This document shows positions 3,257 through 47,985 of a stretch of 64,000 bases of DNA, piece by piece. A program made the translations under genes and the position numbers. Below the pieces are notes generated by a model. That model did not search any database. It was not told the DNA's origin and saw nothing but the letters and a program-made list of their open reading frames with translations. Every line of letters begins with the position of its first letter. The stretch's first letter is position 1. The DNA is from Ostreococcus lucimarinus (taxonomy: Eukaryota): assembly GCA_000092065.1 (NCBI GenBank), contig CP000588.1. One strand, given 5' to 3'.

Positions 3257-3384
3257 ACCGTCCGAGCGCGCCGCGTCGTCGCGAGCGCGAATGTAAGATG
3301 TCAACCAACCGACTGACCGACCGACCGACCGTGCTCCGACCGTCCGCACACCTCCGCGCGTCGGCGCGTCGCGTCGCGCGCGCC

Positions 3385-6224: not shown

Positions 6225-6290
6225 GCGACGCGACGCGACGCGACGCGACGCGCGACGCGACGAGGGACGCGACGCGACGAAGGATGCGAC
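6225..6290. repeat. (GCGACG)n hexanucleotide microsatellite
   Basis: About 10 tandem GCGACG units visible directly in the sequence. Confidence 0.8.
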
Positions 6291-6341
6291 GCGATGCGAT
6301 CGACGCGATGGTGCGTGGATGCGCAACCACGCTGACGAGCG

Positions 6342-7409
6342 ATGACGCGATCTCGCGCGCGCAGGAGGGAGAAGTTACGCGTGCGATCGATGTGGCTCGA
6401 GCGGGAGTCGGGAGGGGGGGCGAGCGGCGCGAGCGGCGGCGGCGCGGCGGCGAAGACGGCGGCGGCGGCGCCGCGCGAGACGGCGAGTTCGCGAGCGGCG
6501 GCGAAGGCGGCGACGGAGAAACGCGAGAAGGCGGCGGAGACGCCGGTGCGAGCGGTGAAAACGATGAGCGCGGATGCGATCGCGAAGGCGTCGGACAGGC
6601 TGTATCGCGGAGAGAGCGGCGTCGCGAAATCTGTGAAAACGACGACGGCGGAGGCGGAGACGTCGTTCGCGCCGAAGATTAGCGAGGCGAGTCGACGATT
6701 GGCGAAGAAATATCGGGAAAAACAACGAACGAACGACGCGAAACCGGCGGCGAGCGATCGCGCGTCGACGTTGCCGACGCGCGAGCGCGAGGAATTGAAG
6801 GAATTGGAATCGTGCACGTTTGCGCCGAACATTTCGAGACGGTCTCGAGAAATCTCGGCGTCTTTGTACAAGAAAAAGTCTGGATCTTTCGTCGAACGTT
6901 CGCGCGTGTGGGCGCAACGTAAAGAAGCGATTCTCGAGGCCGAGCGCGAGGCGAAAGTCGAGGATGATTTGCGCGATTGTACGTTCGCGCCAAAGATTAG
7001 CGCCCCGGGGCAGACGTCGCGAGAGCGTCGTTCGACGACGATTCTAGTAGACGATCCGGAGAGCTCCACCGCATCTCCAGCGCCGGCGACGCCGTCGTCG
7101 AGCGGAGTGATGCCGAAAGGTTTGGAGTCGTTCCTGGCGCGACAACAAAGTGCGCGAAAACAGCGGGAGGAAAAGAACGCGCTTGCCAATCGCCTCGACG
7201 GCTCGACGTGGAAACACGAGACGACGACGAGCGAACCTTTCACGTTCGCCACCGCGTCCAAGGCGCGGCATCAAAGACCTCGCGACGTCAAGGAGGACGT
7301 CAAGGTTGAAGCAAATGCGGCGACGCCGACGCAGCGCCGCCCGCCGAAATCGCCGGCGTACGTCGCCGCGCGCGAGCGACTTCGCGGCGTCCATCTGCGC
7401 GACGCTTAG
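6342..7409 (+). CDS. Hypothetical protein with repeated (C)TFAPKIS motifs and a C-terminal PFTFAT motif; possibly TPX2/FAM161-like microtubule-associated protein
   Basis: Three spaced copies of S/CTFAP(K/N)IS, a K/E-rich coiled region and a terminal EPFTFATASKAR resembling the TPX2-type PF.F.T..R motif. Start could be the internal M at 6564. Confidence 0.4.
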   Translation: MTRSRARRREKLRVRSMWLERESGGGASGASGGGAAAKTAAAAPRETASSRAAAKAATEKREKAAETPVRAVKTMSADAIAKASDRLYRGESGVAKSVKTTTAEAETSFAPKISEASRRLAKKYREKQRTNDAKPAASDRASTLPTREREELKELESCTFAPNISRRSREISASLYKKKSGSFVERSRVWAQRKEAILEAEREAKVEDDLRDCTFAPKISAPGQTSRERRSTTILVDDPESSTASPAPATPSSSGVMPKGLESFLARQQSARKQREEKNALANRLDGSTWKHETTTSEPFTFATASKARHQRPRDVKEDVKVEANAATPTQRRPPKSPAYVAARERLRGVHLRDA

Positions 7410-7505
7410 CTCGACGACGCTTAGCGCTTAGCGCGCTCCGTTAGAATGGTTGTATTACAAAGCGAGCAAACGCGGGTCATGGGTGTCGGCGGGAACCGAC
7501 CCCGC

Positions 7506-7511
7506 AAAAAA
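7506..7511 (-). terminator. Pol III terminator (T6 on the transcribed strand), 12 nt downstream of the tRNA 3' end
   Basis: Plus-strand AAAAAA at 7506..7511 is TTTTTT on the tRNA strand. Confidence 0.6.
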
Positions 7512-7558
7512 TTGGATTCTGAGGGGGATGCCGCGAATCGAACGCGGGGCCTCTCCCA

Positions 7559-7592
7559 AGTTCAAGCAAGCGCTATTCAGCGCTGGGTATTA
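7559..7592 (-). other. tRNA intron 2, 34 nt, at canonical position 37/38
   Basis: Sits between anticodon-loop G37 and T38. Contains an internal hairpin AGCGC-TGAATAG-GCGCT, typical of endonuclease-processed tRNA introns. Confidence 0.6.
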
Positions 7593-7606
7593 CCCGAAGG
7601 GAGAAT

Positions 7607-7697
7607 CTATTGATCAACGAACGAGAGCGTACAGTCAGTACATAGGACTTTTCAAGGTGTGGGTATGCGCGAGGTCACGTCGGCGTGAAAGACTCAC
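7607..7697 (-). other. tRNA intron 1, 91 nt, at non-canonical position 23/24 (D-stem), with GTGAGT...TACTGAC...AG boundaries
   Basis: Read on the minus strand: GTGAGTCTTTCACGCC...TCCTATGTACTGACTGTACGCTCTCGTTCGTTGATCAATAG. The 5' end matches the 5' splice-site consensus, the branch-point-like TACTGAC lies about 28 nt upstream of the 3' AG. Confidence 0.6.
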
Positions 7698-7857
7698 CAT
7701 ACCACTAGACCACATCCCCTTTACTAGGTGTTTAATCGCCAGAGTATGACGAACACTTAGCAGAATGACGATAAACTTGAAGAGGAGCGATCGCGTCGCC
7801 TCGGACACGACGAAGTTACGGGTTTTCGTCATCCACGTTACGTCGCCCCGCACGTAA

Positions 7858-8157
7858 TCAATCGCCGTCGCGCCGATCGAACGTCTCGTCGTCCATCGTC
7901 AGCGCGAGCGCGCACAGCAAGACGACGTTCATGCCCGCGAAGACGTCGAGGTACCAGTACCCCGTGAGCGCGCCCAAGCCGTCGATCGGGCTCGACGAGG
8001 CGAAGAAACCTTCGAGTGGGTTGCTGCCGTCGGGATAGCTCCACGGCGAGGCGCGCGCGACGCGAGGCGCGCGATGCGTCACCGGTGAGGGTCGCGACGG
8101 CGACTGTCGGAGACGGGGCGCGAGCGCGCCCGAAGGCGACGCGAGACGCGCGGACAT
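7858..8157 (-). CDS. Hypothetical small protein with one hydrophobic segment (IDGLGALTGYWYLDVFAGMNVVLLCALALT)
   Basis: A 99-codon ORF beginning 12 nt after the KRI1 stop on the same strand. No family recognised; could be real or fortuitous. Confidence 0.25.
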   Translation of the reverse strand: MSARLASPSGALAPRLRQSPSRPSPVTHRAPRVARASPWSYPDGSNPLEGFFASSSPIDGLGALTGYWYLDVFAGMNVVLLCALALTMDDETFDRRDGD

Positions 8158-8171
8158 GTGCGGTTCGACGG

Positions 8172-10238
8172 TTACACGGCGGCGCTCGCTATTTCTTTGG
8201 CTTTGCGCTTCGCGCGCTTCTTCGCGTTTTTCCGAGCGTTCTTACCCACGCCGGTGGATGCGTCATCCGCGGTGGTGTTTCGAAGCGGCGCTTCGGATTT
8301 ACGCTTTTTGCCGAACGCCGAGTCGGCGTACGACCGCGCGCGCGCCTTGGCGTCGTCGTCAGAACCGTCCGAAGCTTCGTCGTCGTCCTCGCGCTTGGTT
8401 TTGTCTTTTCTGCGTCGCGACGAACGATTCTTCTTGTCTTTGGCTTTCTCTAAGAACTCTTTCGCCATGCGACGCGCTCTCGCGCGTTGGTTGGCGTCCA
8501 CGGCGGCGTCGTTTGCGTCGTCGCGATACGGCGCGAGCTTCTTCAAGCCGACGATTTGGTTCAGGTGCTTGTCTTCCATCAGAAGCACGTCGCGCGTGGT
8601 CAGACCGAACATCTTCGGCGCCACCTCCTTGTACGGGAAGCGCGTCGGCGCTTCACCGATGAAATCTTCGGCGTTCAGCTTGTAGTACTCGTCCATCTTC
8701 GCCTCGAGCTCCTTGCGCCACTTCTTCGCGGCGCGCTTGCTAAATTTGTTTTCTTCTTCTTCTTCGTCCGGCGCCGGTTCGTCGTCATCGTCGAAATGAT
8801 CGTCATCATCTAAATCGTCATCGTCAGGTTTCCCTGCACCCTTCAAAAGTTCCTTCATCTCCTCCTCCAAGTCCCCGAACTCGGGCTTTTCCAGCTCGCC
8901 GAAGACTTCGTCTTCGCCGTCCTCTCCCGCGGCGTCGTAATACTCGTCACCGTACATCTCTCGCATCGCTCGGTCGTGCGCTTCGGGGTCGAATTCTTCA
9001 GTTAAATCCGCCACCTTCGCGCCGCCGCCCTTCAACCCACCGACGGCGGAGATTTGACGCATCTTGTTTGCGATTTCTTCGCGCTTGAGATTCTTCAGAC
9101 GACGCACCTCGGCGAGGAGCTTGGCTCGCTCAGATTCTTTGCGCTCTCGCACTTTCTTTCGCTTGTCCTTGCGCTTCGAATCCTCGCGACGAACTAAGCC
9201 TTCGATGTGACGCGAGTGCGACACGAGCCGATCCGCGCCCGGCTCTTCGAATCGAAAGTTGTACTTGTGCTCGAACGCCTCGGCGCGATCGAGGAGTTCG
9301 GAATCGCTCGACTCGTCGTCGGCGCCCGCGTCGTCGTCCTCGTCGCTCGATGGCGGCCCTAATGTTTGAAACCGCACCGCCGCGGAATCTTTCTTCGAGT
9401 CTTCCTTCATCCACTGTTTCTCCAGCAAGTAGTCTCGCAAGAATTTATCCTCGGCGCTCAAATCGTTCGCGTCGCCGCGTCTCGCGTCAAAGTATTCAGA
9501 CAACTTTTCCGTCGCCGCCGTCATCGCCGCCGCGCGCCGTTTCACCACGAGACCACTCTCGTCTTCATCGTCTTCGTCGTCGTCACCGCCCGCCGCCGCG
9601 TCCTTGAACGCGCGCTTCAGCGCCGCTTGCTCCTCGACGTACGACGGTTCGTCGTTCGCGCGCGCCGCCTCCGCCTCCGCCTCCGCCTCCTCGAGCGCGG
9701 TGGCCCCACCCTCCAGCAACTGCGTCGCCACGACTTCGCGCAACGTCGCCCTCGTCTTCTTCTTCGTCCTCTTCGTCGACGTCGCCTCCTTCTTCCCCCC
9801 CCCGTCCTCGTCGTCCTCGTCCTCGCTCGCCTCGTCGAACAGCTTCGTCTCCGCGTCGTAAATGCTCGGATCCTTCCTCCGAATCTTCGTCAGCGCCTCC
9901 GCGAACGCCCCGTCCAGCGCTCGCTCCAGCGTCTCTTCCTCATCGCTCGACGTCCCATCGCTCGATTCCCCGCTCGTCTCGCTCTCGCTCTTCCCGTCGC
10001 CGCGCGCGCGCAGCGCGCCCCGCGCGTACTCCCGCTCCAGCTTCGCCTGCAATCGGTGCGTCTCCTTCCTTCGTTCGTTGTGTTCGAACCGCGCGGCGTA
10101 CTTTTCGTTGATTTTCAGCGCGTCGCCTTCGCCGTCGCTCGCCGTCGCGTCGTCGCTCGCCGTCGCGTCGTCGCCGTCGCGTCGTCGCGCGCCGCCGCCG
10201 CGCGCCGTCGCCGGCGCGTCGTCGAACATCGACCGCAT
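8172..10238 (-). CDS. KRI1: KRI1 ribosome-biogenesis protein homologue
   Basis: N-terminal LKINEKYAARFEHNERRKE, similar to KRI1 LKxNKxFAxxYExRKRREEL. C-terminal Kri1_C motif MDEYYKLNAEDFIGEAPTRFPYKEV. Start placed at MRSMFDD; the track ORF extends to 11081 through Arg/Ala-rich sequence. Confidence 0.7.
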   Translation of the reverse strand: MRSMFDDAPATARGGGARRRDGDDATASDDATASDGEGDALKINEKYAARFEHNERRKETHRLQAKLEREYARGALRARGDGKSESETSGESSDGTSSDEEETLERALDGAFAEALTKIRRKDPSIYDAETKLFDEASEDEDDEDGGGKKEATSTKRTKKKTRATLREVVATQLLEGGATALEEAEAEAEAARANDEPSYVEEQAALKRAFKDAAAGGDDDEDDEDESGLVVKRRAAAMTAATEKLSEYFDARRGDANDLSAEDKFLRDYLLEKQWMKEDSKKDSAAVRFQTLGPPSSDEDDDAGADDESSDSELLDRAEAFEHKYNFRFEEPGADRLVSHSRHIEGLVRREDSKRKDKRKKVRERKESERAKLLAEVRRLKNLKREEIANKMRQISAVGGLKGGGAKVADLTEEFDPEAHDRAMREMYGDEYYDAAGEDGEDEVFGELEKPEFGDLEEEMKELLKGAGKPDDDDLDDDDHFDDDDEPAPDEEEEENKFSKRAAKKWRKELEAKMDEYYKLNAEDFIGEAPTRFPYKEVAPKMFGLTTRDVLLMEDKHLNQIVGLKKLAPYRDDANDAAVDANQRARARRMAKEFLEKAKDKKNRSSRRRKDKTKREDDDEASDGSDDDAKARARSYADSAFGKKRKSEAPLRNTTADDASTGVGKNARKNAKKRAKRKAKEIASAAV

Positions 10239-10770
10239 CGCGGCGTCGTCGCGAGGCGCGTCGACGCTTCCGCGACGCGTCGATTCGCGTCGACGCGCGT
10301 CGCGCGCGCGTGTGCGGCCGCGTCGCGCCGCGCGCGCGGATTCGCGACGCGCGACGATGCGCGCGTTCGCACCGCTGACTGTTTGCCCATACGAAGTCGC
10401 GTCGTCGTCGACGGATTCCGCGCGCGCGCGCGCCGCACACCTCGACGCGCGAGCGCGCGCGCGCGGCGCGTCGCGGAAGCGCGCGGTCGAGCCCTCCGCG
10501 CGCATCGCGGGCGCTCCGCGCGGATCGGGACGACGCGCGCGCGGAATCCGTCGACGACGCGGAACGACGTCGACGCGTCGATCGCCCGAGGCGAACGCGT
10601 CGAACGACGCGACGCGCGCGCGCGATACGGCGAGGCTCGAGCGTCGCGAGGGCGCGCTCGAGGACGCGGGCGTCGTCGGTGACGACCGGGAGGCGCGCGC
10701 GAGGACGCGCGAGGACGGGCGAAGGCGCGGGATCGATCGGGACGCGGCGCGGCGATAAGGCGCGAACGCG

Positions 10771-12327
10771 ATGGTGAGCTTTCGCGAGGCGAAGCGCGTC
10801 GCCGCGAACGGGACGAACGGAACGGCGACGGCGACGGGGACGACGAACGAAGACGACGGGGCGTGGGACGTGGTGATCGTGGGCGCGGGCGTGGCGGGGG
10901 CGAGCCTGGCGCATTCGCTCGGCGGCGAGGGTCGCAGGGTGCTGTGCGTGGAGCGAGACTTGAGCACGCCGGATCGAATCGTGGGGGAGTTGCTGCAGCC
11001 GGGAGGGTACTTGAAGCTCAAGGAGCTTGGGCTGGAGTCGTGCGTGGAGGGGATCGACGCGCAAAAGGTGTATGGATACACGATGTTTAAAAACGGCGAG
11101 GTGGCGACGATGACGTACCCGCTCGAGGGGCGGTCGGACGACGTCGCGGGGCGCAGTTTTCACAACGGGCGATTCGTACAAAAGCTTCGCCAGGCGGCGA
11201 TGAAGGTTGAGGGCGTCGAATTGCGTCAAGGCACGGTGAAGAAGCTGTTGAATCGCGAGGGTGGCGATTGGAAGGAGGGCGAAACCGTCGGCGGGGTGTC
11301 GTACACCGTCGGCGACGTCTGGGACGAGAAGAAGCAACAGGTGATACCCGGGCCCAGCGTCACGAAAACCGTGTTTGCGCCGCTTACGATCGTGTGCGAC
11401 GGCCACTTTAGCAGTCTGCGCTCCAAACTGAGCCCGCAGGCGTCGCCGGACCATCCGAGCCACTTTGTCGGCGTGATTTTAAAAGGCGCGCCGAGCGATT
11501 TACTTCCAAACGGCAGCCACGGACACGTGGTGCTAGGCGACCCGTCGCCCGTGTTGTTCTATCCGATCTCCTCGACCGAAGTGCGATGTTTGGTTGACAT
11601 TCCGGCGTCGGTGAAGATGCCGAGCGTGGCCAAAGGCGAGATGGCCAAGTACGTGCTCGAGAAAATCGTGCCGCAGGTTCCGGAGCAACTCCAGCCGCAC
11701 TTAATCAAGGCGGTCGAGAACGGGCAGTTTAGATCCATGCCAAATAAAACGATGGCGGCGAAACCGCAGCGTACGCCCGGTGCCGTGATGTTGGGTGACG
11801 CATTCAACATGCGTCACCCGCTCACCGGCGGCGGCATGACGGTGGCGCTCAACGACATCGCCACCTTCAAATCTATGCTCTCGCCTTTACCCGATTTCTC
11901 AGACGCAGCGCTGACCGGGGCGAAACTTGATGAGTTTTATCGTCATCGCACGCGTCCGGCGCTGACTATCAACACGTTGGCGAACGCGTTGTACGCCGTC
12001 TTTTGCTCGAGCGGGGACACGAGCATGGAGGAGATGCGTCAGGCGTGCTTCGAGTACCTCAAGCTCGGCGGTAGCTACGCCCGAGGTCCGATCGCGCTTT
12101 TGGGCGGTCTTGATCCGAATCCGCTCAATTTGGTCAGTCACTTTTTCAGCGTCGCGCTCTTCGGCATCGGTCGCCTCATGGTGCCGCTTCCGACGCCCGA
12201 GCGCTTGTTTAAAGGCGGCAACATTTTAGCCGGCGCGTGCAAGATCATCTTCCCGATCGTCAAAGGCGAAGGGTTTACTCGTATGTTCTTCCCAGCATGG
12301 CTCAGAACGCGTTTAGGGATTATTTAA
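10771..12327 (+). CDS. SQE: Squalene monooxygenase (squalene epoxidase)
   Basis: FAD-binding fold VVIVGAGVAGASLAHSLGGEGRRVLCVERD and squalene-epoxidase-type GDAFNMRHPLTGGGMTVAL, with a C-terminal membrane-associated region. Confidence 0.9.
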   Translation: MVSFREAKRVAANGTNGTATATGTTNEDDGAWDVVIVGAGVAGASLAHSLGGEGRRVLCVERDLSTPDRIVGELLQPGGYLKLKELGLESCVEGIDAQKVYGYTMFKNGEVATMTYPLEGRSDDVAGRSFHNGRFVQKLRQAAMKVEGVELRQGTVKKLLNREGGDWKEGETVGGVSYTVGDVWDEKKQQVIPGPSVTKTVFAPLTIVCDGHFSSLRSKLSPQASPDHPSHFVGVILKGAPSDLLPNGSHGHVVLGDPSPVLFYPISSTEVRCLVDIPASVKMPSVAKGEMAKYVLEKIVPQVPEQLQPHLIKAVENGQFRSMPNKTMAAKPQRTPGAVMLGDAFNMRHPLTGGGMTVALNDIATFKSMLSPLPDFSDAALTGAKLDEFYRHRTRPALTINTLANALYAVFCSSGDTSMEEMRQACFEYLKLGGSYARGPIALLGGLDPNPLNLVSHFFSVALFGIGRLMVPLPTPERLFKGGNILAGACKIIFPIVKGEGFTRMFFPAWLRTRLGII

Positions 12328-12448
12328 AGCATTTTTAGCGGCGATTCATTGTAGCGATCCATCACCTTCACAAGCCTCTTTTCTTCGCGCGAAGACGTCG
12401 TCGTTCGGTTCTCTTACGCGCGTCGGCGCTCTACATACATTACATCTC

Positions 12449-13021
12449 TCAATCGTCGAAAGGATACTCCTCGGGCACGAGCTCTAATAGCTTCACCCGA
12501 ATCGCGAATCGTTCGCCCTCCCCTCTCAAGGGATCGCTCTCGAACGCGCACGTCGTCCGCACGCGAACCGTCTCCAACGCCCCGCGAATCGCCCCGCACA
12601 GCGCGTTACAGTAACTCAAATCCCCATATTTCCCCGGCAACTCCACAAACTCCGCCAACGGATTACTCTCCATCTCAATCACGCACTCGTCTCGCTCCTC
12701 GCTCCAATCCCTCGTCTTCGCGTCGACGTTTAAAAACATCTTCAATCCCACCCGCGTCGTCATCTCCATCGCTTCCTCGAACGTCGCGCACGCCCCTCCG
12801 CTCGCGTTCGTCCTCGACAAAAACTCCTCCACCATCCTCGCCCCCATCGCGCGTCCGACGCGCTCGAGCGCCGCGTTCGCGCACTCCACGTCGTCCTCGT
12901 GATCGCGCAAAATCTGTCGCACGAACGCCCCGTGCGTCAGCGCGAACAGCTCCGCGTTCACCTTCTCCGTCGCCGTCCAGCACGCCGCGCCGAGCGCGGT
13001 CCTCGACGCGGCGGCGGGCAT
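12449..13021 (-). CDS. BET3: TRAPP complex subunit BET3 (TRAPPC3)
   Basis: ELFALTHGAFVRQILRD...NPLAEFVELP...LSYCNALCGAIRGALE matches the BET3 signature. Start at MPAAAS; the upstream in-frame ORF part (13022..14011) is low-complexity and judged non-coding. Confidence 0.8.
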   Translation of the reverse strand: MPAAASRTALGAACWTATEKVNAELFALTHGAFVRQILRDHEDDVECANAALERVGRAMGARMVEEFLSRTNASGGACATFEEAMEMTTRVGLKMFLNVDAKTRDWSEERDECVIEMESNPLAEFVELPGKYGDLSYCNALCGAIRGALETVRVRTTCAFESDPLRGEGERFAIRVKLLELVPEEYPFDD

Positions 13022-13063
13022 GTCGACCCGACGCGCGGCGCTCCGCCGTCGCGCGCCGCGTCG

Positions 13064-13277
13064 CGCGCCGCGTCGATCTCGTTCTCGATTCAATCTTCGT
13101 TCGGTCGATCGACGCGTCGAGGTTCGCGCGCGCGACTCGATCGACGCGCCGAGGTTCGATCGACGCGTCGCGCGCCGCGTCGATCTCGATCTCGATTCAA
13201 TCTTCGTTCGGTCGATCGACGCGTCGAGGTTCGCGCGCGCGACTCGATCGACGCGCCGAGGTTCGATCGACGCGTCG
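13064..13277. repeat. Tandem duplication, two copies of about 107 bp, in the BET3/LETM1-like intergenic region
   Basis: CGCGCCGCGTCGATCTCG(T/A)TCTCGATTCAATCTTCGTTCGGTCGATCGACGCGTCGAGGTTCGCGCGCGCGACTCGATCGACGCGCCGAGGTTCGATCGACGCGTCG occurs twice in tandem with one mismatch. Confidence 0.85.
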
Positions 13278-13568
13278 AAGGATCGATCGCGCGCGCGGGG
13301 GACCGAACGCGCGCGCACACGTCGACGCGCGCGACGCGCGCGCGACGCACGACGCGCGATGGCGGCGCGCGCGGCGCCGGGAGGACGAACGGGCGCGGCG
13401 CGCGCGGCGCGCGCGCGGGCGCGCGGGCGCGCGGCGCGCGCGGCGCGGGCGACGACGGCGCGCGCGACGTCGACGTCAATGGGACGCGCGCGCGCGAGGA
13501 CGCGCGAGGACGCGCGCGGAGGCGCGCGGTGGGACGCGGGCGCGCGGTGGGACGACGCGCGAAGCGCG

Positions 13569-16048: not shown

Positions 16049-16068
16049 GTGCGTCCCGACGCGTGTCG

Positions 16069-17526
16069 ATGCGTTTTCGACTCGACGCGGCGCGCGCGGC
16101 GCGCGAGGGCGAAAAACTGCTGACTGACGGCGACGGCGACGCGACGCAGGTGCCCGTGTGTCACGCTCGAGGCGATTCGAACGCGATGCGCGTGTTTTTT
16201 CGAGAAGTGGTGACGGCGGCTCGAGGGAAACTCACGAGCGAGGAGCGGAAGTCGCTGCCGGCGGTACTGTTTTTGCAAGGCGGACCCGGATTCGAGTGCG
16301 CGGGACCGCTCGAGGCGAGCGGCTGGTTGGGGGAAATGGTCAAGGAACATCGAGTGTTTTTGATGGATCAACGAGGCACGGGACGTAGCGACAGCGAGAT
16401 TGTCCATCCAACGCTCAACCGGGATGCGTCTGGACATCCCTTGTCGTACCCCAGACATTGGACCGACAAAAACACGTCGCCGGCGAAGGCGTGGGCCGTT
16501 CACTTGAAGAATTTCCGAGCAGACAGCATCGTGAAAGACGCCGAGTTGTTCCGTAAGACGGTGCTCGGTGAAGATGTGAAATGGACGCTGCTTGGGCAAT
16601 CCTTCGGCGGCTTTTGCATCACGACGTATTTGTCTTTCGCTCCCGAAGGCGTGAAAGAAGCGCTGCTTACTGGCGGTTTGCCTCCGCTCATCGACGAACC
16701 AGCGAGTGCGTTAAACGCGTATCGAAAATTGTTCGAGCGCGTTCAGACGCAAAACAGAAAATATTTCGAAAGATTTCCGTACGATGTCGACCGCCTCTAT
16801 GCGCTGTATGTCCAACTTCAGAACGAAGGTCCACGGATCTTGCCCGGCGGTGGGTTGCTCACCGTTCCGCTGGTACGAGCGCTCGGTTTTTCTAATTTAG
16901 GCACAGCGCAGGGGATGGAGAGGTTGCATTACATCATGCAGTACGTAGAGATTCATTATGCCGACGAAGAAATTGTTGGAGCTCACTTGCCGCACAAGTT
17001 TTTGATTGAAGTGGAAAACTCGTTTAGGCACTTCGAGACGAACCCGTTGTACGCGGTCCTGCACGAGGCGATTTATTGCAACGGTGCGTGCGCCATCGGT
17101 GCGGCCGACCAAGTGTGGCTCGAGCGAGTTGGCGAAGATCTTTACAGCGCGTTTGGTGAGCCTGAGTCTGATGACTCATTGCGCCGTGCGTTTACGGGGG
17201 AGTGTGTTTACTCTTCATTCTTCGAAGACATCCCATCGCTTCGCCCGTTCAAAGCGATCGTTCAAGAGCTCAAAAAGGACAAAGATTGGCCAAAGGTGTT
17301 GTACGATACGGAGCAGCTGGCCAAGAATACCGTCCCAGTGGCGTGCGCGAGTTACGTCGAGGACATGTTCGTCGATTTCGATCTCGCCTCTGAAACGGCT
17401 GCGAAAATTCGGGGCGCCCGCGTCTGGAGCACCAGCGAATACATGCACTCCGGCATTCGCGAAGACGGCGCCCGCATCGTCCAAAAGCTGTTGTCCTTCG
17501 TTCGCGACGAGGATCCAATTCGTTAG
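16069..17526 (+). CDS. PIP: Proline iminopeptidase / prolyl aminopeptidase (alpha/beta-hydrolase, MEROPS S33)
   Basis: LFLQGGPGFECAGP, HRVFLMDQRGTGRSD, nucleophile elbow GQSFGG. Full-length relative to S33 family members except for an N-terminal frame discontinuity. Confidence 0.85.
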   Translation: MRFRLDAARAAREGEKLLTDGDGDATQVPVCHARGDSNAMRVFFREVVTAARGKLTSEERKSLPAVLFLQGGPGFECAGPLEASGWLGEMVKEHRVFLMDQRGTGRSDSEIVHPTLNRDASGHPLSYPRHWTDKNTSPAKAWAVHLKNFRADSIVKDAELFRKTVLGEDVKWTLLGQSFGGFCITTYLSFAPEGVKEALLTGGLPPLIDEPASALNAYRKLFERVQTQNRKYFERFPYDVDRLYALYVQLQNEGPRILPGGGLLTVPLVRALGFSNLGTAQGMERLHYIMQYVEIHYADEEIVGAHLPHKFLIEVENSFRHFETNPLYAVLHEAIYCNGACAIGAADQVWLERVGEDLYSAFGEPESDDSLRRAFTGECVYSSFFEDIPSLRPFKAIVQELKKDKDWPKVLYDTEQLAKNTVPVACASYVEDMFVDFDLASETAAKIRGARVWSTSEYMHSGIREDGARIVQKLLSFVRDEDPIR

Positions 17527-19888: not shown

Positions 19889-20439
19889 ACGCGACCCGTG
19901 TGGAGTATGAAACCCCGTCCGTTACCGCGCACGTCGTCGCGCGCCGTCCCGGCGCGGCGTCGCGCGCGCGCCGCCTTTCACACGCGCGCGGCGAGCGACC
20001 ATGGCCAAGGGTGAACCGACGAGGTGCGCGCGAAATCTTCGACCGCGCGGCGCGCGACGCGACGGCGCGCGACGGCGCGCGCGCGCGTGGAGCGCGACGC
20101 GGAACGACGCGACGCGATCGCGGGTTAGGGCTTCGGTCGCGCGATGTCGACGCCGAGGGGACGCGCGCGACGCGCGCGCGCGGTCGAACGCGGCGTCGAA
20201 CGATCGAGGGGTATCGCGCGCGCGTTCGAGAGCGTCGGAAAGGGGGAGAACGCGCGCGCGCGCGGAGGTTGGGGGCGGATGACGGTGACGATGGGCGCGC
20301 GCGAGCCCTAACGACGATGGGCGCGCGGGGCGACGACGACGCGCGGGGGGGGCGCGCGGGAATCCGGACGGGTGGTGCGATGCGGAATGTTTGCGAACGC
20401 GACGACTGACGAACGACGCGCTCGGCGAATCGCGATAGA

Positions 20440-31213: not shown

Positions 31214-34200
31214 ATGTACGCCGACGGCATCGACGACGACGACGACCGGCGTCGAGATGACGACGACGACGACCGCGCGGGCGCGCTCGTGGGCGGCTTG
31301 GAGCTCCGCGCGCCGCGCGACGCCGCGACCAATCCGCGCGGTCCCGGTGGATCGACCTCGCGCTTGGGACTCGACGCACTCGCGCACGCGAAGCGACGCG
31401 AGAAGCGCGCGCGCGAGAGCGCGCTGTCGTTCTCACTCGACGCCGAGGACGACGCGGGAGAGGCGCGCGCGAGGCGCGGGGTAGAAGGCGAGAGCAGAGG
31501 ACAGCGGGACGGGAAACAATTCAGAGCGCGCCGGGACGAAACGCCGTCGCATCCGGGAGGACTGAACGCGCACGCCAAGGAAGCGATCGATCGACGCAGA
31601 AAAGATGGAAAGTTTGGACGGGGGTTGCAGGCGCGACGTGAGGATGAACGGGATGGCGAAGATGCGGACGGGCGGCGACGGAGTTGGCGCGGCGACGACG
31701 GCGAGTGGGAGGAGACGCCGAGGAGAGATCGAGACGGACGGATGATGACGCCGAAGTTCGCGAAACATGGATCGTGGGATGATATCGCGGCGCAACCGGC
31801 GACGGCGCGGAGTGGGTCTGGAGGTGGGTGGAGCGGGAACGCGTCGAGCAGTCAACGGTCGCATTCGTTGCGCTTTGAGATGGATACGCCCGCGGCAACG
31901 CCGAGTTGGAAATCCAATGCCTGGGCCACGGGGGCGATGGCGAACGCAAACAAGTTTGTTACCGAAGGTACCGCCGTCGCGGCCGAAGATGACGACGCGC
32001 CAGCCCCGGATGACGACGCGGAGAAGGTTTTGGATCGCGCGTGGTACGACGACGACGAGGGCGGCGGCGCGCACGGCGACGCGCACAACCCTTTTAACAC
32101 GAACGCACGGGATGAGGCGCGTTACGCGAACAAAGAACAAGAATACGCGAAAAGGTTGACTCGACGCGACGGGTCGCTCATGTCCATGGCTGCGTCGCGA
32201 CGCGTCAGTCAACTCAACGCCGATTCAAATCAATGGGAAGAAAATCGTATGATGACGTCCGGTGTGATTCGCACCAAGGAAATTGATTTGGATTTTGATG
32301 ACATGGAAGAAAACCGCGCGGTTTTGCTCGTGCACGACACGAAACCGCCATTCTTAGACGGCCGTATGGTGTTCACGAAGCAGCAAGAGACTGTCGTACC
32401 GGTGAAGGACGTCACGAGCGACATGGCGCAAATCGCGCGCAAAGGAAGCGCGTTGGTGAAGGAAGTGCGTACGAAGCGAGAGGAGAACAAAGGTCGGGAT
32501 CGATTTTGGGAAATGAAAGGGTCGAAGATGGGATCGATCACGGGTACGACACAAGCTGAAAACAAGGAAGCCGCGGAAAACGCGCAAGCGGCGAAAGGTC
32601 GCGATGACGACAGACCAGACGTCGTCGGCGCGGACGGCGAAATCGATTTCAAGGCTGGCGCCAAGTTTGCCGAGCACATGAAAGGTTCGAAGGCGAGCGC
32701 ACAAAGCGAGTTCGCGAAGACGAAGACGATCAAAGAACAGCGTGAGTTCTTACCTGTGTACGGTTGTCGCGAAGACTTGATGCATGTCATTCGCGAAAAT
32801 CAAATCGTAGTCGTCGTCGGCGAAACCGGAAGCGGTAAGACGACGCAAATGACGCAATACATGCACGAGGAAGGTTACTCCACATTCGGGATGGTCGGTT
32901 GCACTCAACCCCGTCGTGTAGCTGCAATGAGCGTCGCGAAGCGTGTGAGCGAGGAAATGGGCTGTGAACTAGGTAAGGAAGTCGGTTACGCCATTCGATT
33001 CGAGGACTGCACGGGGCCTGATACGATTATCAAGTACATGACGGATGGCGTGCTTCTTCGAGAAACTTTGCGCGAACCTGATCTTAACATGTACAGCTGT
33101 ATCATCATGGACGAAGCGCACGAACGATCGTTACACACTGACGTTCTATTCGGTATTCTGAAGAAAGTTGTCGCGCGCCGTCGCGATTTCAAGCTCATCG
33201 TCACGTCGGCGACGTTGAACGCAGAAAAGTTTAGTAACTTCTTTGGATCGGTGCCGGTTTTCCACATTCCTGGTCGCACGTTCCCGGTCGATATTCTGTA
33301 CTCCAAGACACCCGTGGAGGATTACGTCGAAGCTGCGGTGAAGCAAGCGCTCACTGTGCATCTCTCGTCGGGACCGGGTGACATTTTGATCTTCATGACG
33401 GGTCAAGAAGAAATCGAGACGGTGACGTACACGTTGGAAGAGCGCGTCGAGCAGTTGATGAGCGAAGGCACGTGTCCACCGCTGAACGTTTTACCAATCT
33501 ACTCACAACTCCCGAGCGATTTGCAGGCGAAGATTTTTCAAGACGCAGAGGATGGTAACCGAAAGTGCATCGTCAGTACGAACATCGCGGAGACGTCGCT
33601 CACGCTCGACGGCGTCATGTACGTCATCGACAGTGGTTATTGCAAACTTTCAGTGTTTAATCCTCGAATGGGTATGAATGCTTTGCAAGTTTTCCCTTGC
33701 GCGCAAGCTGCGGTGAATCAACGCAGCGGCCGCGCCGGTCGTACTGGACCAGGGACGTGCTATCGCCTGTACACGGAGATGGCGTTCAAGCACGAAATGC
33801 TCGTCTCGACGGTTCCCGAGATTCAACGCACCAACTTGGGTAACGTCGTGTTACTTTTGAAGTCGCTCAACGTGGATAACTTGTTAGATTTTGACTTCAT
33901 GGATCCTCCTCCCCAAGAAAATATCTTGAACAGCATGTATTCCCTGTGGATTTTAGGCGCGCTCGACAACACTGGCGGGCTCACGAAACTCGGCTCGAAG
34001 ATGGTTGAGTTTCCCGTCGACCCGCCGCTGGCGCAGATGCTCATCAAAGCGGAAGAAACGGGCTGCTCGAACGAAATGCTCACCGTCGTCGCGATGTTAT
34101 CGGTTCCGTCAGTGTGGTTCAGGCCGAAGGATCGAGAGGAAGAATCCGACGCCGCGCGCGAAAAGTTCTTCGTTCCCGAAAGCGACCACTTGACGTTGCT

Positions 34201-34906
34201 CAACGTGTACCAGCAATGGAAAAATAACGGGTACAGGAACGATTGGTGCAACAAGCATTTCATTCAGGGCAAAGGTCTGAAGAAAGGTAGAGAGGTGCGC
34301 GCGCAATTGATGGATATCATGAAGCAACAGAAAATCCCGCTCGTGAGCTGTGGGCAAGATTGGGACGTCTGCCGTCGATCCATCGCCGCCGCGTACTTTC
34401 ATCAAGCGGCGCGTTTGAAAGGCGTCGGTGAGTATGTCAATGCTCGCAATGGTATGCCTTGCCACCTTCATCCGAGCTCAGCGCTTTATGGTCTGGGTTA
34501 CACTCCTGATTACGTCGTATACCACGAACTCATCATGACATCGAAAGAATACATGCAATGCGTCACCGCCGTCGAACCGCACTGGCTCGCCGAATTCGGA
34601 CCGATGTTTTTCACGCTCAAGGAGAGCCATTCGAGCATGTTGAAATCAAAGGCGAAGCGCAAAGAGGACAAGGCGAAGATGGAGGCTGAAATGCAAGCTA
34701 AACGCGATGAGGAAGCACAGCTGCAAGAAGCGCAGCGCACGCGAGAAGAAGATCGCCGCGCGAGACAAAGGAGTCAAATCGTGACGCCGGGGCAACGCAG
34801 CGCGGCGACGACGCCGCGCGTAGATTACGGAACGTCGCGTCCCCCATCGAGCGTTCGGCGCGGTGCGGGTGGCCGGACGCCGGGAAGAAAACGCTTTGGA
34901 CTATAG
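31214..34906 (+). CDS. PRP16: Pre-mRNA-splicing factor ATP-dependent RNA helicase PRP16 (DHX38)
   Basis: RD/RS-rich N-terminus, DEAH core ([30 protein letters not shown]), HA2/OB C-terminus, and the PRP16-specific segment [26 protein letters not shown] before the helicase. Confidence 0.9.
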
Positions 34907-34960
34907 ATAGGATTGTAGATTAGCTAATTTTAGACAACCATTACAACGTTTCTAGTCATC

Positions 34961-37414
34961 TCAGTTAGTGGTAACCGCTAAGCGCTTCAAATGATCCATG
35001 AACACTTGCAGACTCACGTCATCCGTGAAAATGATGTCCGATCCGCCACCCATCGTCGCGCTCGAGTTGTACGTCGCGCTCGGATTCAATTTGGCCAACA
35101 AAAAGCGCGCCTGAGAGCCGTGCTGATCGCAATCAACCAAACGCGGCACGGGGAATCTAGTGGCGATTATTTGTTCCGCCTCCGCCTTGGGCGCCGCGAG
35201 CAAGTCTTTGAACGCCACGTGCTCTGGCTGATCTTGATAGTTCGCCTTTCGCCACTGCGCGATCGTCATACCGTGGAAAACGACAACACTGAAGTAAGCG
35301 TCGAGGACCAAGATTTTGTCCGCGGCGATCGAGCACACGTCCAGCAATACGGGCTCGGGAGGACCGTTGAAGGAGTACGCCGTCAACGTGGGTTGAATCA
35401 TCACCAACGAATTGAAGACGTTTTCACGCATCAAAATCATGCGGAAATACGCCGTCTCGTCGGGCGAATTGTTGAACACTTGCACGAACTGCGATCGTCG
35501 CAAGTTGAACATGAACTGCGGGTAAATGCTAAATTGCGGCATGAGCTGAAACGAATGCGGATCGTCCTTTCTGTAATCGCCAAAGCGCTGGCACAGCTGG
35601 ATGAGCTTGCGATCGAGCCATCTCGTCGCCGCGGGGCAATCCGTTTCTTCCTCAGTCTCCATCTTCCAAGACAACTGCCTAGCGACGAGCACGGCTGCGG
35701 CTTCTTGATCGAACCCGGCGGCGATGTCGTTCAAATTTTGTCCTTCGGTCCAACGACGACTCGTCGTGATGACGCGCATGCGCGTCTCGCCGCTGGGGAG
35801 CGTGTACGTGCACAGAAATTGCAGGTAAAACTGTTGCGCTTGCTGCCCTTGCATGGCCATCGGCTGTTGATCTTTCCCACCCGGATTCGCAACATCAAAG
35901 TACACCGCCAGAGACGTTTCGTTCGTGAGTGTGCAAAGCTTCCACGCCGTCGTTCCGCCGCTACCGATGGGCGTGTCGCTCGTCGCGCCTGGCAAACCTT
36001 TTCGATCGAGCGCAGCGCATGGTCCGATCACCCCCGCTGTCCTCACGTCGCGGCTCGTGATTACTTCGAACTGTCCGTTGTACGCGATTCCCAATCCACC
36101 CTCAGCGTCTGGGGCGAAAAGTTTTTGAAACGACGTCTTGAACACGGTGTGCGAAAACGACTCAGCCAGCACGACGTTCCCGCCAGTCTTTTCCACGCAA
36201 ACTTTCATCTCCGCCAGTCCGACTTGATCGAGCGCGCACGCGAACACGTCCAACACGTGTCCATTCGCGCACAGGTTGATCGCCACCTGTTCGTAATACT
36301 TTTTGGCCTTGTGATAAAACGGCGCCGCGCCCTTGACTATGTCCTTGTGCGATCGCACCGCCTGCTCCATATCTTTCGCCACGATCGTTCCACCTCCATC
36401 CGTAGCCGCGCCGCCGGTGAATAACATCGCCCTCGCGTTCATCCCGATCGCGGACGTGGACAACAGACAAGACGCCACCATGAGCGCCGTGCCCGTGCAT
36501 CGCGACCGTCGGCACGACGGCAACGGCGCGAACGCGTCTCGCTGCAATTCCTCCAAAATCGCCGTAAACTGAAATTCACACTCGCTCAGCGGCACCAAGA
36601 ACTTGCTCGTCGGCATCGCTCCCGGGTGTGCGCCGTTCATCCCCGGCTGCGCGCCCGCCATCCCCGGAGCTCGACCGTTCGTCTGCCGGTGCCCGCCCCC
36701 GAGCGTCAACTGGTCCTTAATCTGCTGTTGCGTAAACTCCTTATTTCCCCGAAACACGTACGATTTCGGGCAATCCGCGAACCCCAACTCGTGCACGTGC
36801 ACGTGCGTCCCGAACGTCACCAACCCAACCCGCGCGTCCTCCGGCAACAGACTCAGCGCCTGCGTCAGCGCCTGCTTCAGCGCCGTCAACTCCTCCTCCT
36901 CCGCGCACGCGTCGACGACGAACAGATACCCCGGTCCGCATCCCGTCCCCTGTCCCGCTCGCGGCACCGCGTACTCTATCGTCGTGTAGCTCGGGAACAG
37001 CTCCGCCGGCAGATTCGTCTCGCTCAGCGCGTTGTAGTGCGGCGGAAAGTGATTCCTCGCGTGGCACAGGCAGCACACCCAGATCTTGCTCGCGAAATCC
37101 ACCCTCGCGTACGGGTTCAGCCCCCCCCCGCACCCCTTGCACCGCACGCACTCGTACGGCACGCGCGGCGCGACCTCCGACGCGATCTCTCGCAGCGGCG
37201 TGACGACCGCGCCGAACGGCACGACGCACTTCGTCATCTCGGCTCGCGAATTCGCCACCACGTTCCACGACATTCGCACGCCGTCGCACGCCTCCAGCGC
37301 GCTCCAATCCACGCCCGCGCGCGCGACATCGTTGGCGCTCCGCGCGCGCGCCGCGGGGTCGTCGCGCGACGCCATGACGGCGTCGTCGTGTGCCGATCGA
37401 CGCATTCGCGCCAA
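34961..37414 (-). CDS. SEC23: COPII coat protein Sec23
   Basis: [13 protein letters not shown]-term, Zn-finger [36 protein letters not shown], trunk, helical and gelsolin-like domains. Confidence 0.9.
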
Positions 37415-39845: not shown

Positions 39846-40418
39846 TTATTTCGACGCGCGCTCGCACAATTCGTCGTCGATCTGTCGAAGGACGCCGACG
39901 ATGAATTCTTCGCAGCTCTTTTTCAGCGCCGCGTAGCACGCGTCCTCGCGCTCGCGATGTTCCTTCTTGCGGTTTTCGACTTTGATCTCAAACGCGCACT
40001 CCTCATCTTCGGCGCAATCGCGGGAGAACTCAGGGATGTGAATCGTACCCTGAACCTCCACTGCCGCCTCGTCTCCGTCTTCGTCTTCGCCGTCTTCGCC
40101 GTCTTCTTCGGCGAACGAAGCGCGCCACTCCAGCGTCGTCTCGAAATCAAACCCATGTCGCGGTTTCCCTCGAATCATCACCACGCTCGCATCGCCTTCG
40201 CACTTCTTCACCCCGACCACGCGCGCGACGACGCCCGCGAACGCGCCGTCCAAGTCAAACTTTCCTCGCTCGACGACGAGCGTCTCCAGGCGCGCGCGCG
40301 CCCAATCCGTGTGCCCTCGCTCTTCCCACGTCCCCGCCGCGTTCCACGCCGATATCTGCGTCGATGACACTTGTCTCGTCAACGCCGCCGCTTCCTCGCT
40401 CGTGATTCGCTGCGTCAT
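39846..40418 (-). CDS. Aha1 N-terminal-domain protein (Hsp90 ATPase activator-like, N-domain only)
   Basis: ISAWNAAGTWEERGHTDWARARLETLV...CEGDASVVMIRGKPRHGFDFETTLEW...VQGTIHIPEFS matches the Aha1_N pattern (NNWHWTEKD...GEASINNRKGK...GTVEIPNLS). Confidence 0.65.
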   Translation of the reverse strand: MTQRITSEEAAALTRQVSSTQISAWNAAGTWEERGHTDWARARLETLVVERGKFDLDGAFAGVVARVVGVKKCEGDASVVMIRGKPRHGFDFETTLEWRASFAEEDGEDGEDEDGDEAAVEVQGTIHIPEFSRDCAEDEECAFEIKVENRKKEHREREDACYAALKKSCEEFIVGVLRQIDDELCERASK

Positions 40419-40446
40419 TCAACAGTCGTTCCTCGTCAGTCGTCGT

Positions 40447-40477
<31 letters not shown>

Positions 40478-40879
40478 GCTCGCGTCGTCGCTCCCCCGCT
40501 CCGCACCTTCGCCGTCGCCGCCGGCGCCTCTCCCGCGTTCCGACCGTGCCAATAATGATACGACAGCTCGCCCTTCCCGTCGCCGTCGCGCCGTCGCGCG
40601 CGCGCGTCGTCGTCGTCGTCGCTCATGGCGTCGAAAGATGTTCCACGACCGTCGAACCTCCCCTCTCGCGCGCGCGCGCGCGTCGTCGCGCGCGCGCGCG
40701 CGACGCCGACGCCGCGCGCGCGATCCGCGTCGCGTCGCGCGCGCGATCCGCGTCGCGCGCGCCGCGCGACGCGTCGTCGCGCGTCGCGATGTGCGCGCGC
40801 CCGCGTCGTCACAAATCGCCGCGCGCGGCGCCGCCGCCGACGCCTCGCGCGACGCGCGCGCGGCGAGCGACGCGAAACG

Positions 40880-46342: not shown

Positions 46343-46752
46343 CGTTCGATTCGCGATTCGCGCGCGACGAAATGCGTCGCGACGACGTCCTCGCCGCGTC
46401 GCCTCGCGTTCCGACCATCGCGCGCGCGTCGCATTTTTTCGCGTCGTCGCGTTTTTTCGCCCGACGCGGCGCGCGCGCGGTCGCGCGCGCGCCGTCGACG
46501 CGCGCGCGACTCGACGTAAAAACGCATCGAAAACGTCTTCCGAGGCGGATCTCCGCGCGCGCGCCGGCGCGACGGTCGCGTCGGCGCGTCGGCGCGCGCT
46601 CGAGCGCGCGCGACTATTTTTTTTCGCGCGACGTCGCGGTCGAGCGCGCGCTCGATCGTCGTCGACGGCGCCGCGCCGCGCGCGGTCGGTCGCCGCGCGC
46701 GGTCGCGCGTCGCGCGCGTCGCGGCGCGACGCGCGTCACGGCGCGACGCGTC

Positions 46753-47985
46753 ATGGACGTCGAGCGCGACGCGGCGCGCGCGCTCGCGGCGATGTCGACG
46801 ACGATCGAGCGCGCGACGACGACGCGCGACCGCGCGAACGACGCGCGACTCGGGTCGGGCGCGCGACGCGAGACGATGGACGAGGCGAAGGGCGCGACGG
46901 CGACGGCGCGAGGATCGGCGACGAGGGCGGCGTCGGCGCGCGAGACGGCGGTGCGAACGCCGATGATTCGCGAGGCGCGGCGGCGGGCGACGACGAGGAC
47001 GAGGACGCGCGAGGGGGGGGAGGGCGGGCGCGGGGCGCGCGAGGACGGTTTGAAATTCAAAGTCGGCGGCGACGACGAGACGCGGTCGACGAGAGGGGCG
47101 AGCGCGAGCGCGTCGGGGGGGGCGCGCGAGGCGGTGGTGGTTGGAATGCGATTAGACGCGCTGTTTGACGCCGCCGCGGATCGGGAGACGAGGGATTCGG
47201 AAGCGGCGACGAGGGCGGACGATTTGACGGCGTTCGCGGCGGCGATGACGCCGCGGGCGCGCGAGAGAGCGCCGCGGCGCGCGCTGGCGGTGTACGAGAA
47301 GACATTCGTGTGTGGGATAGGAGGGTGTGAGAAGAGTTACGGGAGCGCTTCGAGTTTGTGCGCGCATAAACGAGCGAGACATCCGGGTTGGCGCGAAGCG
47401 GCGACCGCGACGAAGGCGACGACGATCAAGAAGGAAGACGACGAAGACGTGATCGACGGCGCCGGAGACGCCGGAGACGCGGTCGATGATGATGGTAACG
47501 TCTTCGACGACGCGTCGATGCGCCTGGCGCGCAAACGCGGGGCGAGCGGTTTGAACGACGCGAACCGCGCGTCGGCGCTCGGCGCCTACTTTGAAATCGT
47601 CGCCGCGGATGCGCACGGACGTTTGAGTTCGGCGAATCGAACCAAACGGCGTCTCGTTCGTCTTTCTAAAGACGCGGGCGCGTGCGCGAACGACCCGAGC
47701 GAGCCCGCGGAACGGCGCGCCGCCGCCGCCGCCGCCGCGCGCGTCTTCGCGACGGTGGAAGAGTCCGTCGACGGCGAGCAAGAGCGCGCCAGCGCTTGGT
47801 TACACACCCTCGACGACGCCTCGAGGGCGGTTTCGAAAACTCAAACCTCGTCGTCGATCATCGACGCACGAGCGCTCGACCCGGACGCGCGTTCGCACGC
47901 GCCGGAGCTCGTCCGCGCGTGCGTTCGGCACCGCATCGCTCGCGTCTTACGCCGAGCCTTCGTCCAAGCCGCGTCGCCGGCGTGA
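46753..47985 (+). CDS. Hypothetical C2H2 zinc-finger protein
   Basis: FVCGIGGCEKSYGSASSLCAHKRARH classic C2H2 finger; the rest is low complexity. Start uncertain. Confidence 0.5.
   Translation: MDVERDAARALAAMSTTIERATTTRDRANDARLGSGARRETMDEAKGATATARGSATRAASARETAVRTPMIREARRRATTRTRTREGGEGGRGAREDGLKFKVGGDDETRSTRGASASASGGAREAVVVGMRLDALFDAAADRETRDSEAATRADDLTAFAAAMTPRARERAPRRALAVYEKTFVCGIGGCEKSYGSASSLCAHKRARHPGWREAATATKATTIKKEDDEDVIDGAGDAGDAVDDDGNVFDDASMRLARKRGASGLNDANRASALGAYFEIVAADAHGRLSSANRTKRRLVRLSKDAGACANDPSEPAERRAAAAAAARVFATVEESVDGEQERASAWLHTLDDASRAVSKTQTSSSIIDARALDPDARSHAPELVRACVRHRIARVLRRAFVQAASPA

Follow-up and report, generated by a model that had tools for sequence, protein, structure and literature searches.

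Textbooks separate spliceosomal introns, which belong to transcripts of RNA polymerase II, from the introns of transfer RNA (tRNA) genes, which are spliced by proteins. Here we describe a tRNA-Pro(CGG) gene of the green alga Ostreococcus lucimarinus that appears to contain one intron of each kind. It lies on the minus strand of a stretch of 64,000 nucleotides (nt) of contig CP000588.1 (assembly GCA_000092065.1), referred to here as the window, in whose coordinates all positions below are given unless another locus is named. The gene is divided into three exons by an intron of 91 nt in the D-stem (intron 1) and an intron of 34 nt in the anticodon loop (intron 2). Judged by its signals, a spliceosomal origin of intron 1 is close to certain. 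We think it probable that this is a live, single-locus gene from whose transcript intron 1 is taken out by the spliceosome and intron 2 by the tRNA splicing endonuclease.

An intron of messenger RNA (mRNA) type in the U6 small nuclear RNA (snRNA) of Schizosaccharomyces pombe was reportedly described by Tani and Ohshima in 1989 and 1991. Spliceosomal introns are documented in that gene, which is transcribed by polymerase III, and, in some fungi, in U1, U2 and U5 snRNA and ribosomal RNA (rRNA) genes (PMC5855946). The O. lucimarinus locus resembles S. pombe U6 in having a GT-AG intron with a branch site within a small, conserved and structured non-coding RNA gene, in the internal A and B boxes and T-run terminator of a polymerase III gene, and in the lineage-specific nature of an insertion that needs precise removal. 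It differs in that the host is a tRNA, which is outside the spliceosome, so that reverse splicing at the catalytic centre, by which the snRNA introns are usually explained, is not directly applicable, and in that the same transcript has a second, endonuclease-type intron. Splicing of U6 is proven, whereas for intron 1 we infer it from the sequence, together with its machinery, the transcript used and the order of the steps.

Ectopic and multiple tRNA introns were reportedly described by Soma (2007, 2013) and Kawach (2005), circularly permuted tRNA genes by Maruyama (2010), and the introner elements of Micromonas by Worden (2009) and Simmons (2015). The ectopic introns of Cyanidioschyzon merolae, Chondrus crispus, nucleomorphs and Crenarchaeota resemble the present case in that they yield multiply interrupted tRNA genes, include D-arm introns and escape gene finders (PMC3728597, PMC4090602, PMC13578239). 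Those introns have a strict or relaxed bulge-helix-bulge (BHB) motif and are cut by the endonuclease, whereas intron 1 lacks a BHB and carries spliceosomal signals. Permuted tRNA genes come from the same algal group, Ostreococcus and Micromonas (PMC3978253), and one relative described below has the same tRNA in permuted form at the same locus; such genes mature through BHB cleavage and circularisation rather than through the spliceosome, and the window gene is colinear. The introners of Micromonas (PMC4540971) are like intron 1 in that they are spliceosomal introns which a mamiellophyte acquired recently and which have strong consensus signals. They are present in many copies and in protein-coding genes, whereas intron 1 has a single copy in the DNA examined and a tRNA as its host.

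Reviews of the subject (PMC3978253, PMC4090602 and, for photosynthetic organisms in 2026, PMC13578239) cover canonical introns, BHB-type ectopic introns and permuted genes, and for Ostreococcus they contain canonical and permuted tRNA genes only. Full-text literature searching brought up no earlier description of a tRNA gene with a spliceosomal intron, which is not proof of absence. Spliceosomal introns in non-coding RNA genes and multiply interrupted tRNA genes are each already known; it is their combination in one tRNA gene that we have not found described. We incline, with reserve, to regard this as the first tRNA gene with a true spliceosomal intron, one whose maturation would need both spliceosome and endonuclease.

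Anatomy and detection of the gene

A sequence-only reading of the window had placed three pieces of a tRNA on the minus strand, separated by 91 and 34 nt, and both the places and the gaps are confirmed. Exon 1 (7698..7719, 22 nt, Sprinzl positions 1-23) contains the 5' strands of the acceptor stem and the D-stem, the D-loop, the first two bases of the D-stem 3' strand and the A box TGGTCTAGTGG; its sequence is the same in all contigs of the window's species (L001, L008-L010, L013-L023) and in a close sister lineage, L002. Intron 1 (7607..7697) interrupts the D-stem between positions 23 and 24. Exon 2 (7593..7606, 14 nt) supplies the remainder of the D-stem 3' strand, position 26, the 5' strand of the anticodon stem, the CGG anticodon and G37, and is followed by intron 2 (7559..7592) at the canonical position 37/38. 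Exon 3 (7523..7558, 36 nt) comprises position 38, the anticodon stem 3' strand, the variable loop, the T arm and the acceptor 3' strand, with the B box GTTCGATTC and a discriminator C. A run of six T residues (T6, 7506..7511), which we take as the polymerase III terminator, starts 11 nt past the tRNA 3' end, and a T5-T6 run is found at the equivalent spot in L002, in O. tauri and in the permuted gene of a further relative, L005.

When the exons are joined, ARAGORN reports a tRNA-Pro(CGG) in which the 7-bp acceptor stem is perfect, the T stem has 5 bp and the anticodon loop is TTCGGGT including G37, much as had been proposed, except that the product is 72 nt long rather than 73. This product is 97-100% identical to orthologues without the D-arm intron. 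The boundary of intron 1 has a one-base G ambiguity, giving two splice registers that yield identical products. The A and B boxes and the downstream T6 noted in the sequence-only reading are all present and the polymerase III signals are intact; the distance between the A and B boxes is stretched to approximately 160 nt, and the longest T run within the precursor is three. That this is a eukaryotic nuclear gene is borne out by its conservation, its syntenic orthologues and its surroundings, where the neighbours KRI1 and squalene epoxidase encode eukaryotic proteins. The window is approximately 64% G+C. The core of the earlier reading, a long D-stem intron together with a canonical anticodon-loop intron, likewise holds on the evidence of ARAGORN, the orthologues and conservation.

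The locus is poorly served by standard tools. ARAGORN had been proposed as a check and gave a divided answer: with default settings it finds no gene in the window, in its intron-aware mode it miscalls the locus as a tRNA-Arg with a 105-nt intron, and only the joined exons return tRNA-Pro(CGG). A search of the whole window against Rfam, at the gathering threshold and at E<=5, yields neither a tRNA nor any match in the intron. Routine annotation would therefore pass over the gene. A generic search for split tRNAs in the window and related loci recovered only the tRNA-Pro(CGG) gene and its orthologues, which are syntenic in five other lineages, and so this is not a chance assembly of tRNA-like pieces. 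Intron-aware ARAGORN (-i) also calls a tRNA-Ala(cgc) at 13287-13425 on the minus strand and a tRNA-Arg(tcg) with a 925-nt intron at 46557-47573 on the plus strand; both are inside G+C-rich coding sequence, are unsupported by the generic search and are probably false positives.

Two introns of different types

Intron 1 reads ATG/GTGAGT...TACTGAC...28 nt...AATAG/A, where the slashes mark the splice sites. On the minus strand, its 5' splice site GTGAGT (7697..7692) matches GTRAGT, the branch box TACTGAC (7640..7634) places the branch A 28 nt from the 3' end, and the intron terminates with the 3' splice site TAG (7609..7607). Excision yields GGTATG/ATTCTC, which is the contiguous sequence in O. 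tauri and three further relatives (L004, L005 and L007). The composite GTRAGT..ACTGAC..YAG has a single match on the two strands of the window (128 kb), and it is at intron 1; the expectation from shuffled sequence is 0.125 per 128 kb, and a random insert with fixed ends would have all of the signals together with an analytic probability of about 7e-8. Intron 1 is 50.5% GC and contains no T run longer than three.

Introns in the protein-coding genes of these algae provide a yardstick. At the O. tauri locus two introns, of 61 and 94 nt, could be solved exactly from gene ranges and product lengths, and both have the form GTGCGA/GTGCGT...ACTGAC...CAG. Detection of host introns in the window by G+C content at third codon positions (GC3) or by joining open reading frames (ORFs) was too noisy in this GC-rich genome, and each ACTGAC box was inspected instead. 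With the tRNA intron excluded there are 17 such boxes on both strands. Eight of them are preceded by a GTGCG-type donor at 25-140 nt and followed by a YAG at 15-35 nt and then by a long open frame, a combination seen for 5.8% of the boxes when the six letters are permuted in the other possible ways (Fisher p=2e-6). The intron at 16049-16149 (plus strand; 101 nt, GTGCGT...ACTGAC, 22 nt to CAG) is homology-validated, in that the spliced product aligns unbroken over the junction with the Arabidopsis aminopeptidase AT3g61540. It is the only one so validated, and the others are assigned as probable by architecture: 40410-40506 (minus), by its donor, ACTGAC and YAG, and those with ACTGAC boxes at 20405, 30614 and 39331 (plus) and at 49885, 32209 and 24487 (minus). 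The probable host introns are 60-130 nt long, are frequently near the 5' end of the gene, and have a GTGCG(T/A/G) donor and an ACTGAC 15-32 nt before the YAG. Intron 1, at 91 nt and with its branch 28 nt from the end, falls within both the length and the branch-distance ranges.

The sequence-only reading had compared the locus with the ectopic tRNA introns of archaea and algae, and this comparison does not stand for intron 1. An ectopic intron, of the type found in C. merolae, in cryptophyte and chlorarachniophyte nucleomorphs and in Crenarchaeota, would be removed by endonuclease and ligase, and its GT...AG ends would be a coincidence or a relic. Neither a strict nor a relaxed BHB is present in intron 1, where the test returns H 2/4 for the central helix and h 0 and h' 0 for the two flanking ones in both registers and in both carrier species, and allowing bulges of 2-4 nt brings no improvement over canonical geometry; intron 2, used as the positive control, scores H 4/4 and h 7 bp with a 3-nt bulge in both the window and L002. 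The absence of a BHB must be read with the knowledge that nucleomorph introns in the D- and T-arms without an obvious BHB are still excised, but those ectopic introns are 3-24 nt long (PMC4090602), far below the 91 nt seen here. Intron 1 is also unstructured (folding z=+0.85 against shuffles), and the ectopic explanation must treat as accident the joint occurrence of GTGAGT, a YAG and a branch box that matches the host in sequence and spacing. In its favour, mamiellophytes do process odd tRNA genes, with permuted examples in Ostreococcus and Micromonas (PMC3978253) and in L005 at this very locus, and the transcript needs the endonuclease for intron 2 in any case. We regard an ectopic origin as improbable, and since intron 1 is, by its signals, of spliceosomal type, the locus is more unusual than first proposed.

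Intron 2 is, to judge from its predicted fold, a normal endonuclease-type (BHB) pre-tRNA intron. It belongs to the canonical eukaryotic 37/38 class and is conserved across the genus. Its anticodon-intron helix extends the anticodon stem by 4 bp, and the 3' splice site lies in a bulge of 3 nt (hBH). An internal hairpin (AGCGCT/AGCGCT) is present and the intron folds more stably than shuffles (z=-2.25). Intron 1 is unlike this class, as its D-stem location is beyond the reach of the ruler mechanism of the eukaryotic endonuclease. Intron 2 is identical to that of L002 at 33 of 34 positions, and its conservation suggests a role beyond being spliced out. An intron 2 core, ACCCAGCGCTGA...GCGCT...TTGAAC, is also common to O. 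tauri (L003:12717-12750), where the adjacent spacers are unalignable.

Other features of intron 1 were considered. A box C/D or H/ACA small nucleolar RNA was rejected, because the boxes are out of order and Rfam is blank. In the segment 7637-7705 (minus strand), the end of exon 1 and the 5' splice site, GTGGTATG/GTGAG, can pair with CTCGC.GCATA.CCCAC at intron nt 25-39, so intron 1 holds a near-inverted copy of the D-arm. L002 forms the same exon 1-intron 1 helix, and a CC>TT change there converts a G-C pair to G-U. As a functional structure this helix was set aside, as its stability is no better than that of shuffles (z=0.06 and 0.77).

Conservation and orthologous loci

The comparison of orthologous loci that the sequence-only reading had advised places tRNA-Pro(CGG) at the same syntenic position in five other lineages. 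In each of the six it adjoins KRI1, the orthologue of which in the window (8172..10232, minus strand, the start being approximate and taken from a 686-aa orthologue) serves as a syntenic anchor. The closest named relative is O. tauri, with KRI1 57% and squalene epoxidase 83% identical, and the gene order in common is TRAPP, squalene epoxidase, KRI1, a small ORF, tRNA-Pro, ..., a transglutaminase-like gene and an AAA ATPase. O. tauri (L003), L004 and L007 have the 37/38 intron alone, at 37, 43 and 49 nt. The closest outgroup by squalene epoxidase (88%), L005, has a circularly permuted tRNA-Pro(CGG) and is without intron 1. The D-arm intron is carried only by the window's species and by L002, in which squalene epoxidase is 97% and KRI1 approximately 92% identical over the aligned region, and intron 1 is therefore a recent gain.

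Across lineages the acceptor stem shows compensatory changes (GGGGATG/CATCCCC, GGGGGTG/CACCCCC and GGGGTAA/TTACCCC), as does the T stem (CCGCG/CGCGG, CCGAG/CTCGG in L005, and CGGAG/CTCCG), suggesting strongly that this is a functional tRNA lineage. Its structure is unstable across the genus, given that the L005 orthologue is permuted at the same locus. The permuted gene (L005:8440-8561, minus strand; JGI 3300023084 Ga0255778_10004003) consists of the 3' half, a 13-nt linker ATCTCTGCTTATC, the 5' half, a trailing half-intron and a T6 run. The contig breaks off 4 nt before the 3' half, leaving the leader outside it, and past the terminator are three tandem GATGTAATTTGGC units, each with a TGTAA.

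An alternative is that the window gene is dead or dying, inactivated by a fragment of a spliceosomal intron in its D-stem, with CCG codons read by tRNA-Pro(UGG) or another tRNA-Pro(CGG) and with a cause other than tRNA function behind the high similarity between lineages. A UGG anticodon can read CCG by established wobble rules, and tRNA-Pro(CGG) is in principle dispensable. Insertions in the D- and T-arms of eukaryotic tRNA genes are usually taken as marks of a pseudogene (PMC4090602), and O. lucimarinus has 44 tRNA genes to the 47 of O. tauri (PMC3673656), so losses may occur. The pattern of divergence from L002 argues otherwise. The exons are identical at 72 of 72 positions, compared with 92.7% at fourfold-degenerate sites (n=727), 68% in the spacer between the squalene epoxidase (SE) and KRI1 genes and 67% in the more distant spacer on the upstream side of the tRNA. 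Exons free of change would be expected with a probability of 0.004 at the fourfold rate and of 1e-12 at the spacer rate. Intron 1 (82/88, or 93%, plus four indels) keeps its three signals, GTGAGT, TACTGAC and TAG, unchanged; its conservation far exceeds that of the spacers (p=1e-7) and falls short of that of the exons (p=0.0025, indels counted). The terminator, both promoter boxes and the splice signals are kept in both lineages.

The edges of the conserved unit are sharp and match a functional unit: it begins 46 nt before the tRNA and includes the whole of it, and the sequence on either side has diverged. The upstream segment (7720..7765, minus strand; 46 nt, relatively A+T-rich, …GATTAAACACCTAGTAAA) is 93.5% identical to L002, whereas the next 92 nt upstream are 67% identical, and it is probably an upstream promoter element that controls the tRNA gene. 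A spare copy is also unlikely given the minimal tRNA sets of mamiellophytes (45-47 genes in O. tauri; PMC13578239, PMC3673656), and CCG should be a frequent codon at approximately 64% G+C. In our estimation a dead gene is unlikely, if somewhat less so than an ectopic intron, and the comparison with L002 indicates that the gene is kept by purifying selection.

Fourteen independent contigs from different samples carry the gene in identical, unspliced genomic form, and this identity likewise points to a gene that is alive. Ten population loci, found via the small protein encoded upstream, are identical across the gene and hence uninformative on constraint. A metagenome scan anchored on the exons and leaving the intron free returned three contigs, all identical to the window's lineage, and no further lineage. 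The Logan contig SRR23274481 is 100% identical to the window over 6230-13076.

How the intron arrived is a separate matter. Intron 1 could descend from a mobile introner-like element, a transposon equipped with splice signals, whose insertion the gene tolerated thanks to splicing; this proposal is about origin only and is compatible with spliceosomal removal. Introners are known in the sister genus Micromonas (PMC4540971), and the recent, lineage-specific gain and near-consensus splice signals would fit. However, BLAST with both introns found no second copy or repeat family in the window or in approximately 80 kb of related loci, and inspection of the intron 1 boundaries found no terminal inverted repeats or target-site duplication, only a single shared G; the metagenome scan, being anchored on the exons, could not detect copies of intron 1 elsewhere. 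We consider this origin doubtful, the least probable of the alternatives discussed.

Transcription and maturation

We propose that a U2-type spliceosomal intron entered the D-stem in the common ancestor of the two closely related carrier lineages. Intron 1 would be recognised by the spliceosome through GTGAGT, TACTGAC and TAG and leave as a lariat, and its loss would restore the D-stem sequence of the intron-less orthologues. Because the D-arm cannot form until intron 1 has gone, its removal is probably the first step, presumably preceding those steps that read the L-shape of the tRNA. The tRNA splicing endonuclease would then excise intron 2, tRNA ligase would join the exons, and RNase P and RNase Z would trim the ends.

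Two transcripts can be envisaged as the substrate. The first is the primary transcript of polymerase III, a route that is allowed because the A and B boxes and T6 are intact and the introns contain no run of four or more T residues, and for which S. pombe U6 offers a precedent; the conserved 46 nt upstream of the tRNA are consistent with it, as an upstream promoter element. The second is a polymerase II transcript of the neighbouring gene that would run through the tRNA to the first TGTAA beyond it. This neighbour (7858..8157, minus strand) encodes a small conserved protein of 99 aa, PDGSNPLEGFFAS...GLGALTGYWYLDVFAGMNVVLL, with a hydrophobic C-terminus; it starts 14 nt past the KRI1 stop and itself stops 138 nt upstream of the tRNA. 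The protein is 94% identical in L002 and 60% in O. tauri, and has no Pfam family on record. The exact sequence is indexed in 531 blocks of public assemblies, indicating that the carrier is an abundant natural population.

A block downstream of the tRNA, GCTCGCTTTGTAATACAACC (7448..7467, minus strand), is kept in L002 amid otherwise unalignable flanking sequence, and contains the first TGTAA past the stop of the 99-aa gene (7459..7455), 63 nt beyond the tRNA. The block is possibly the poly(A) signal of a polymerase II transcript running through the tRNA, or it could lie in the 3' untranslated region (UTR) of a convergent plus-strand gene that ends at 7409. The polymerase II route is thus suggestive only.

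Several considerations weigh against the reading we favour, in which the spliceosome and the endonuclease each remove one intron from a live, single-locus gene. The spliceosome usually assembles in association with polymerase II, and the precursors of tRNAs are polymerase III products that are bound by La and have a short life. The predicted fold buries the 5' splice site (GTGAG:CTCGC) and could hinder binding of U1, an objection tempered by the finding that this fold is no more stable than that of shuffled sequence. The polymerase II route is weakened in two ways, as in O. tauri a stretch of 800 nt is free of TGTAA and the block at 7448..7467 could serve the convergent gene. Intron 1 is carried by two close lineages only, so that its comparison has little depth and offers no compensatory changes. 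Its divergence equals the fourfold-site rate (p=1.0), so that the size of the constraint depends on which neutral benchmark is chosen, and none of its ten changes hits a splice signal, an outcome with a chance of approximately 0.15. Finally, the status as a single locus was judged from the window and related loci, and an uninterrupted copy elsewhere in the genome is possible.

Some further features of the window were noted. TGTAA occurs 4-150 nt after the stops of most long genes, for example at 3292, 30423 and 44832 on the plus strand and 57344, 42160, 34945, 12444 and 8176 on the minus strand, and it overlaps the KRI1 stop (8176..8172). The enrichment is modest, with 67% within 450 nt of a long-ORF stop against approximately 50% for permutations of the same letters; the pattern fits a green-algal poly(A) signal and would imply very short 3' UTRs. 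The region 32001-36000 is 54% G+C, compared with approximately 64% elsewhere, and is inside the gene for a 1230-aa DEAH-box helicase (ORF 31214-34906, plus strand; DEAD, Helicase_C, HA2 and OB_NTP_bind). The Logan assemblies SRR23274481 and SRR1179203 match the window at 100% and both stop exactly at 13076, which hints at a repeat or polymorphic site just past this position.

If the proposed maturation is correct, the substrate of the spliceosome is a pre-tRNA made by polymerase III, or else a functional tRNA is carved from the spliced 3' UTR of a polymerase II mRNA; in both cases the spliceosome can serve tRNA maturation. The set of non-coding RNAs invaded by spliceosomal introns, which includes snRNAs and some rRNAs, would then be extended to the most abundant class of small RNA. 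The locus is a clean case of recent gain, as the insertion point is exact to the nucleotide, the empty site is present in close relatives and the carriers are slightly diverged; with its intron-less and permuted sister alleles it would provide a natural test case for intron gain through reverse splicing or intron transposition. Genes of this kind cannot be seen by finders of the tRNAscan or Rfam type or by those based on the BHB, and some of the 'missing' tRNAs of compact algal genomes, such as the difference between the 44 genes of O. lucimarinus and the 47 of O. tauri, may be partly hidden in this way.

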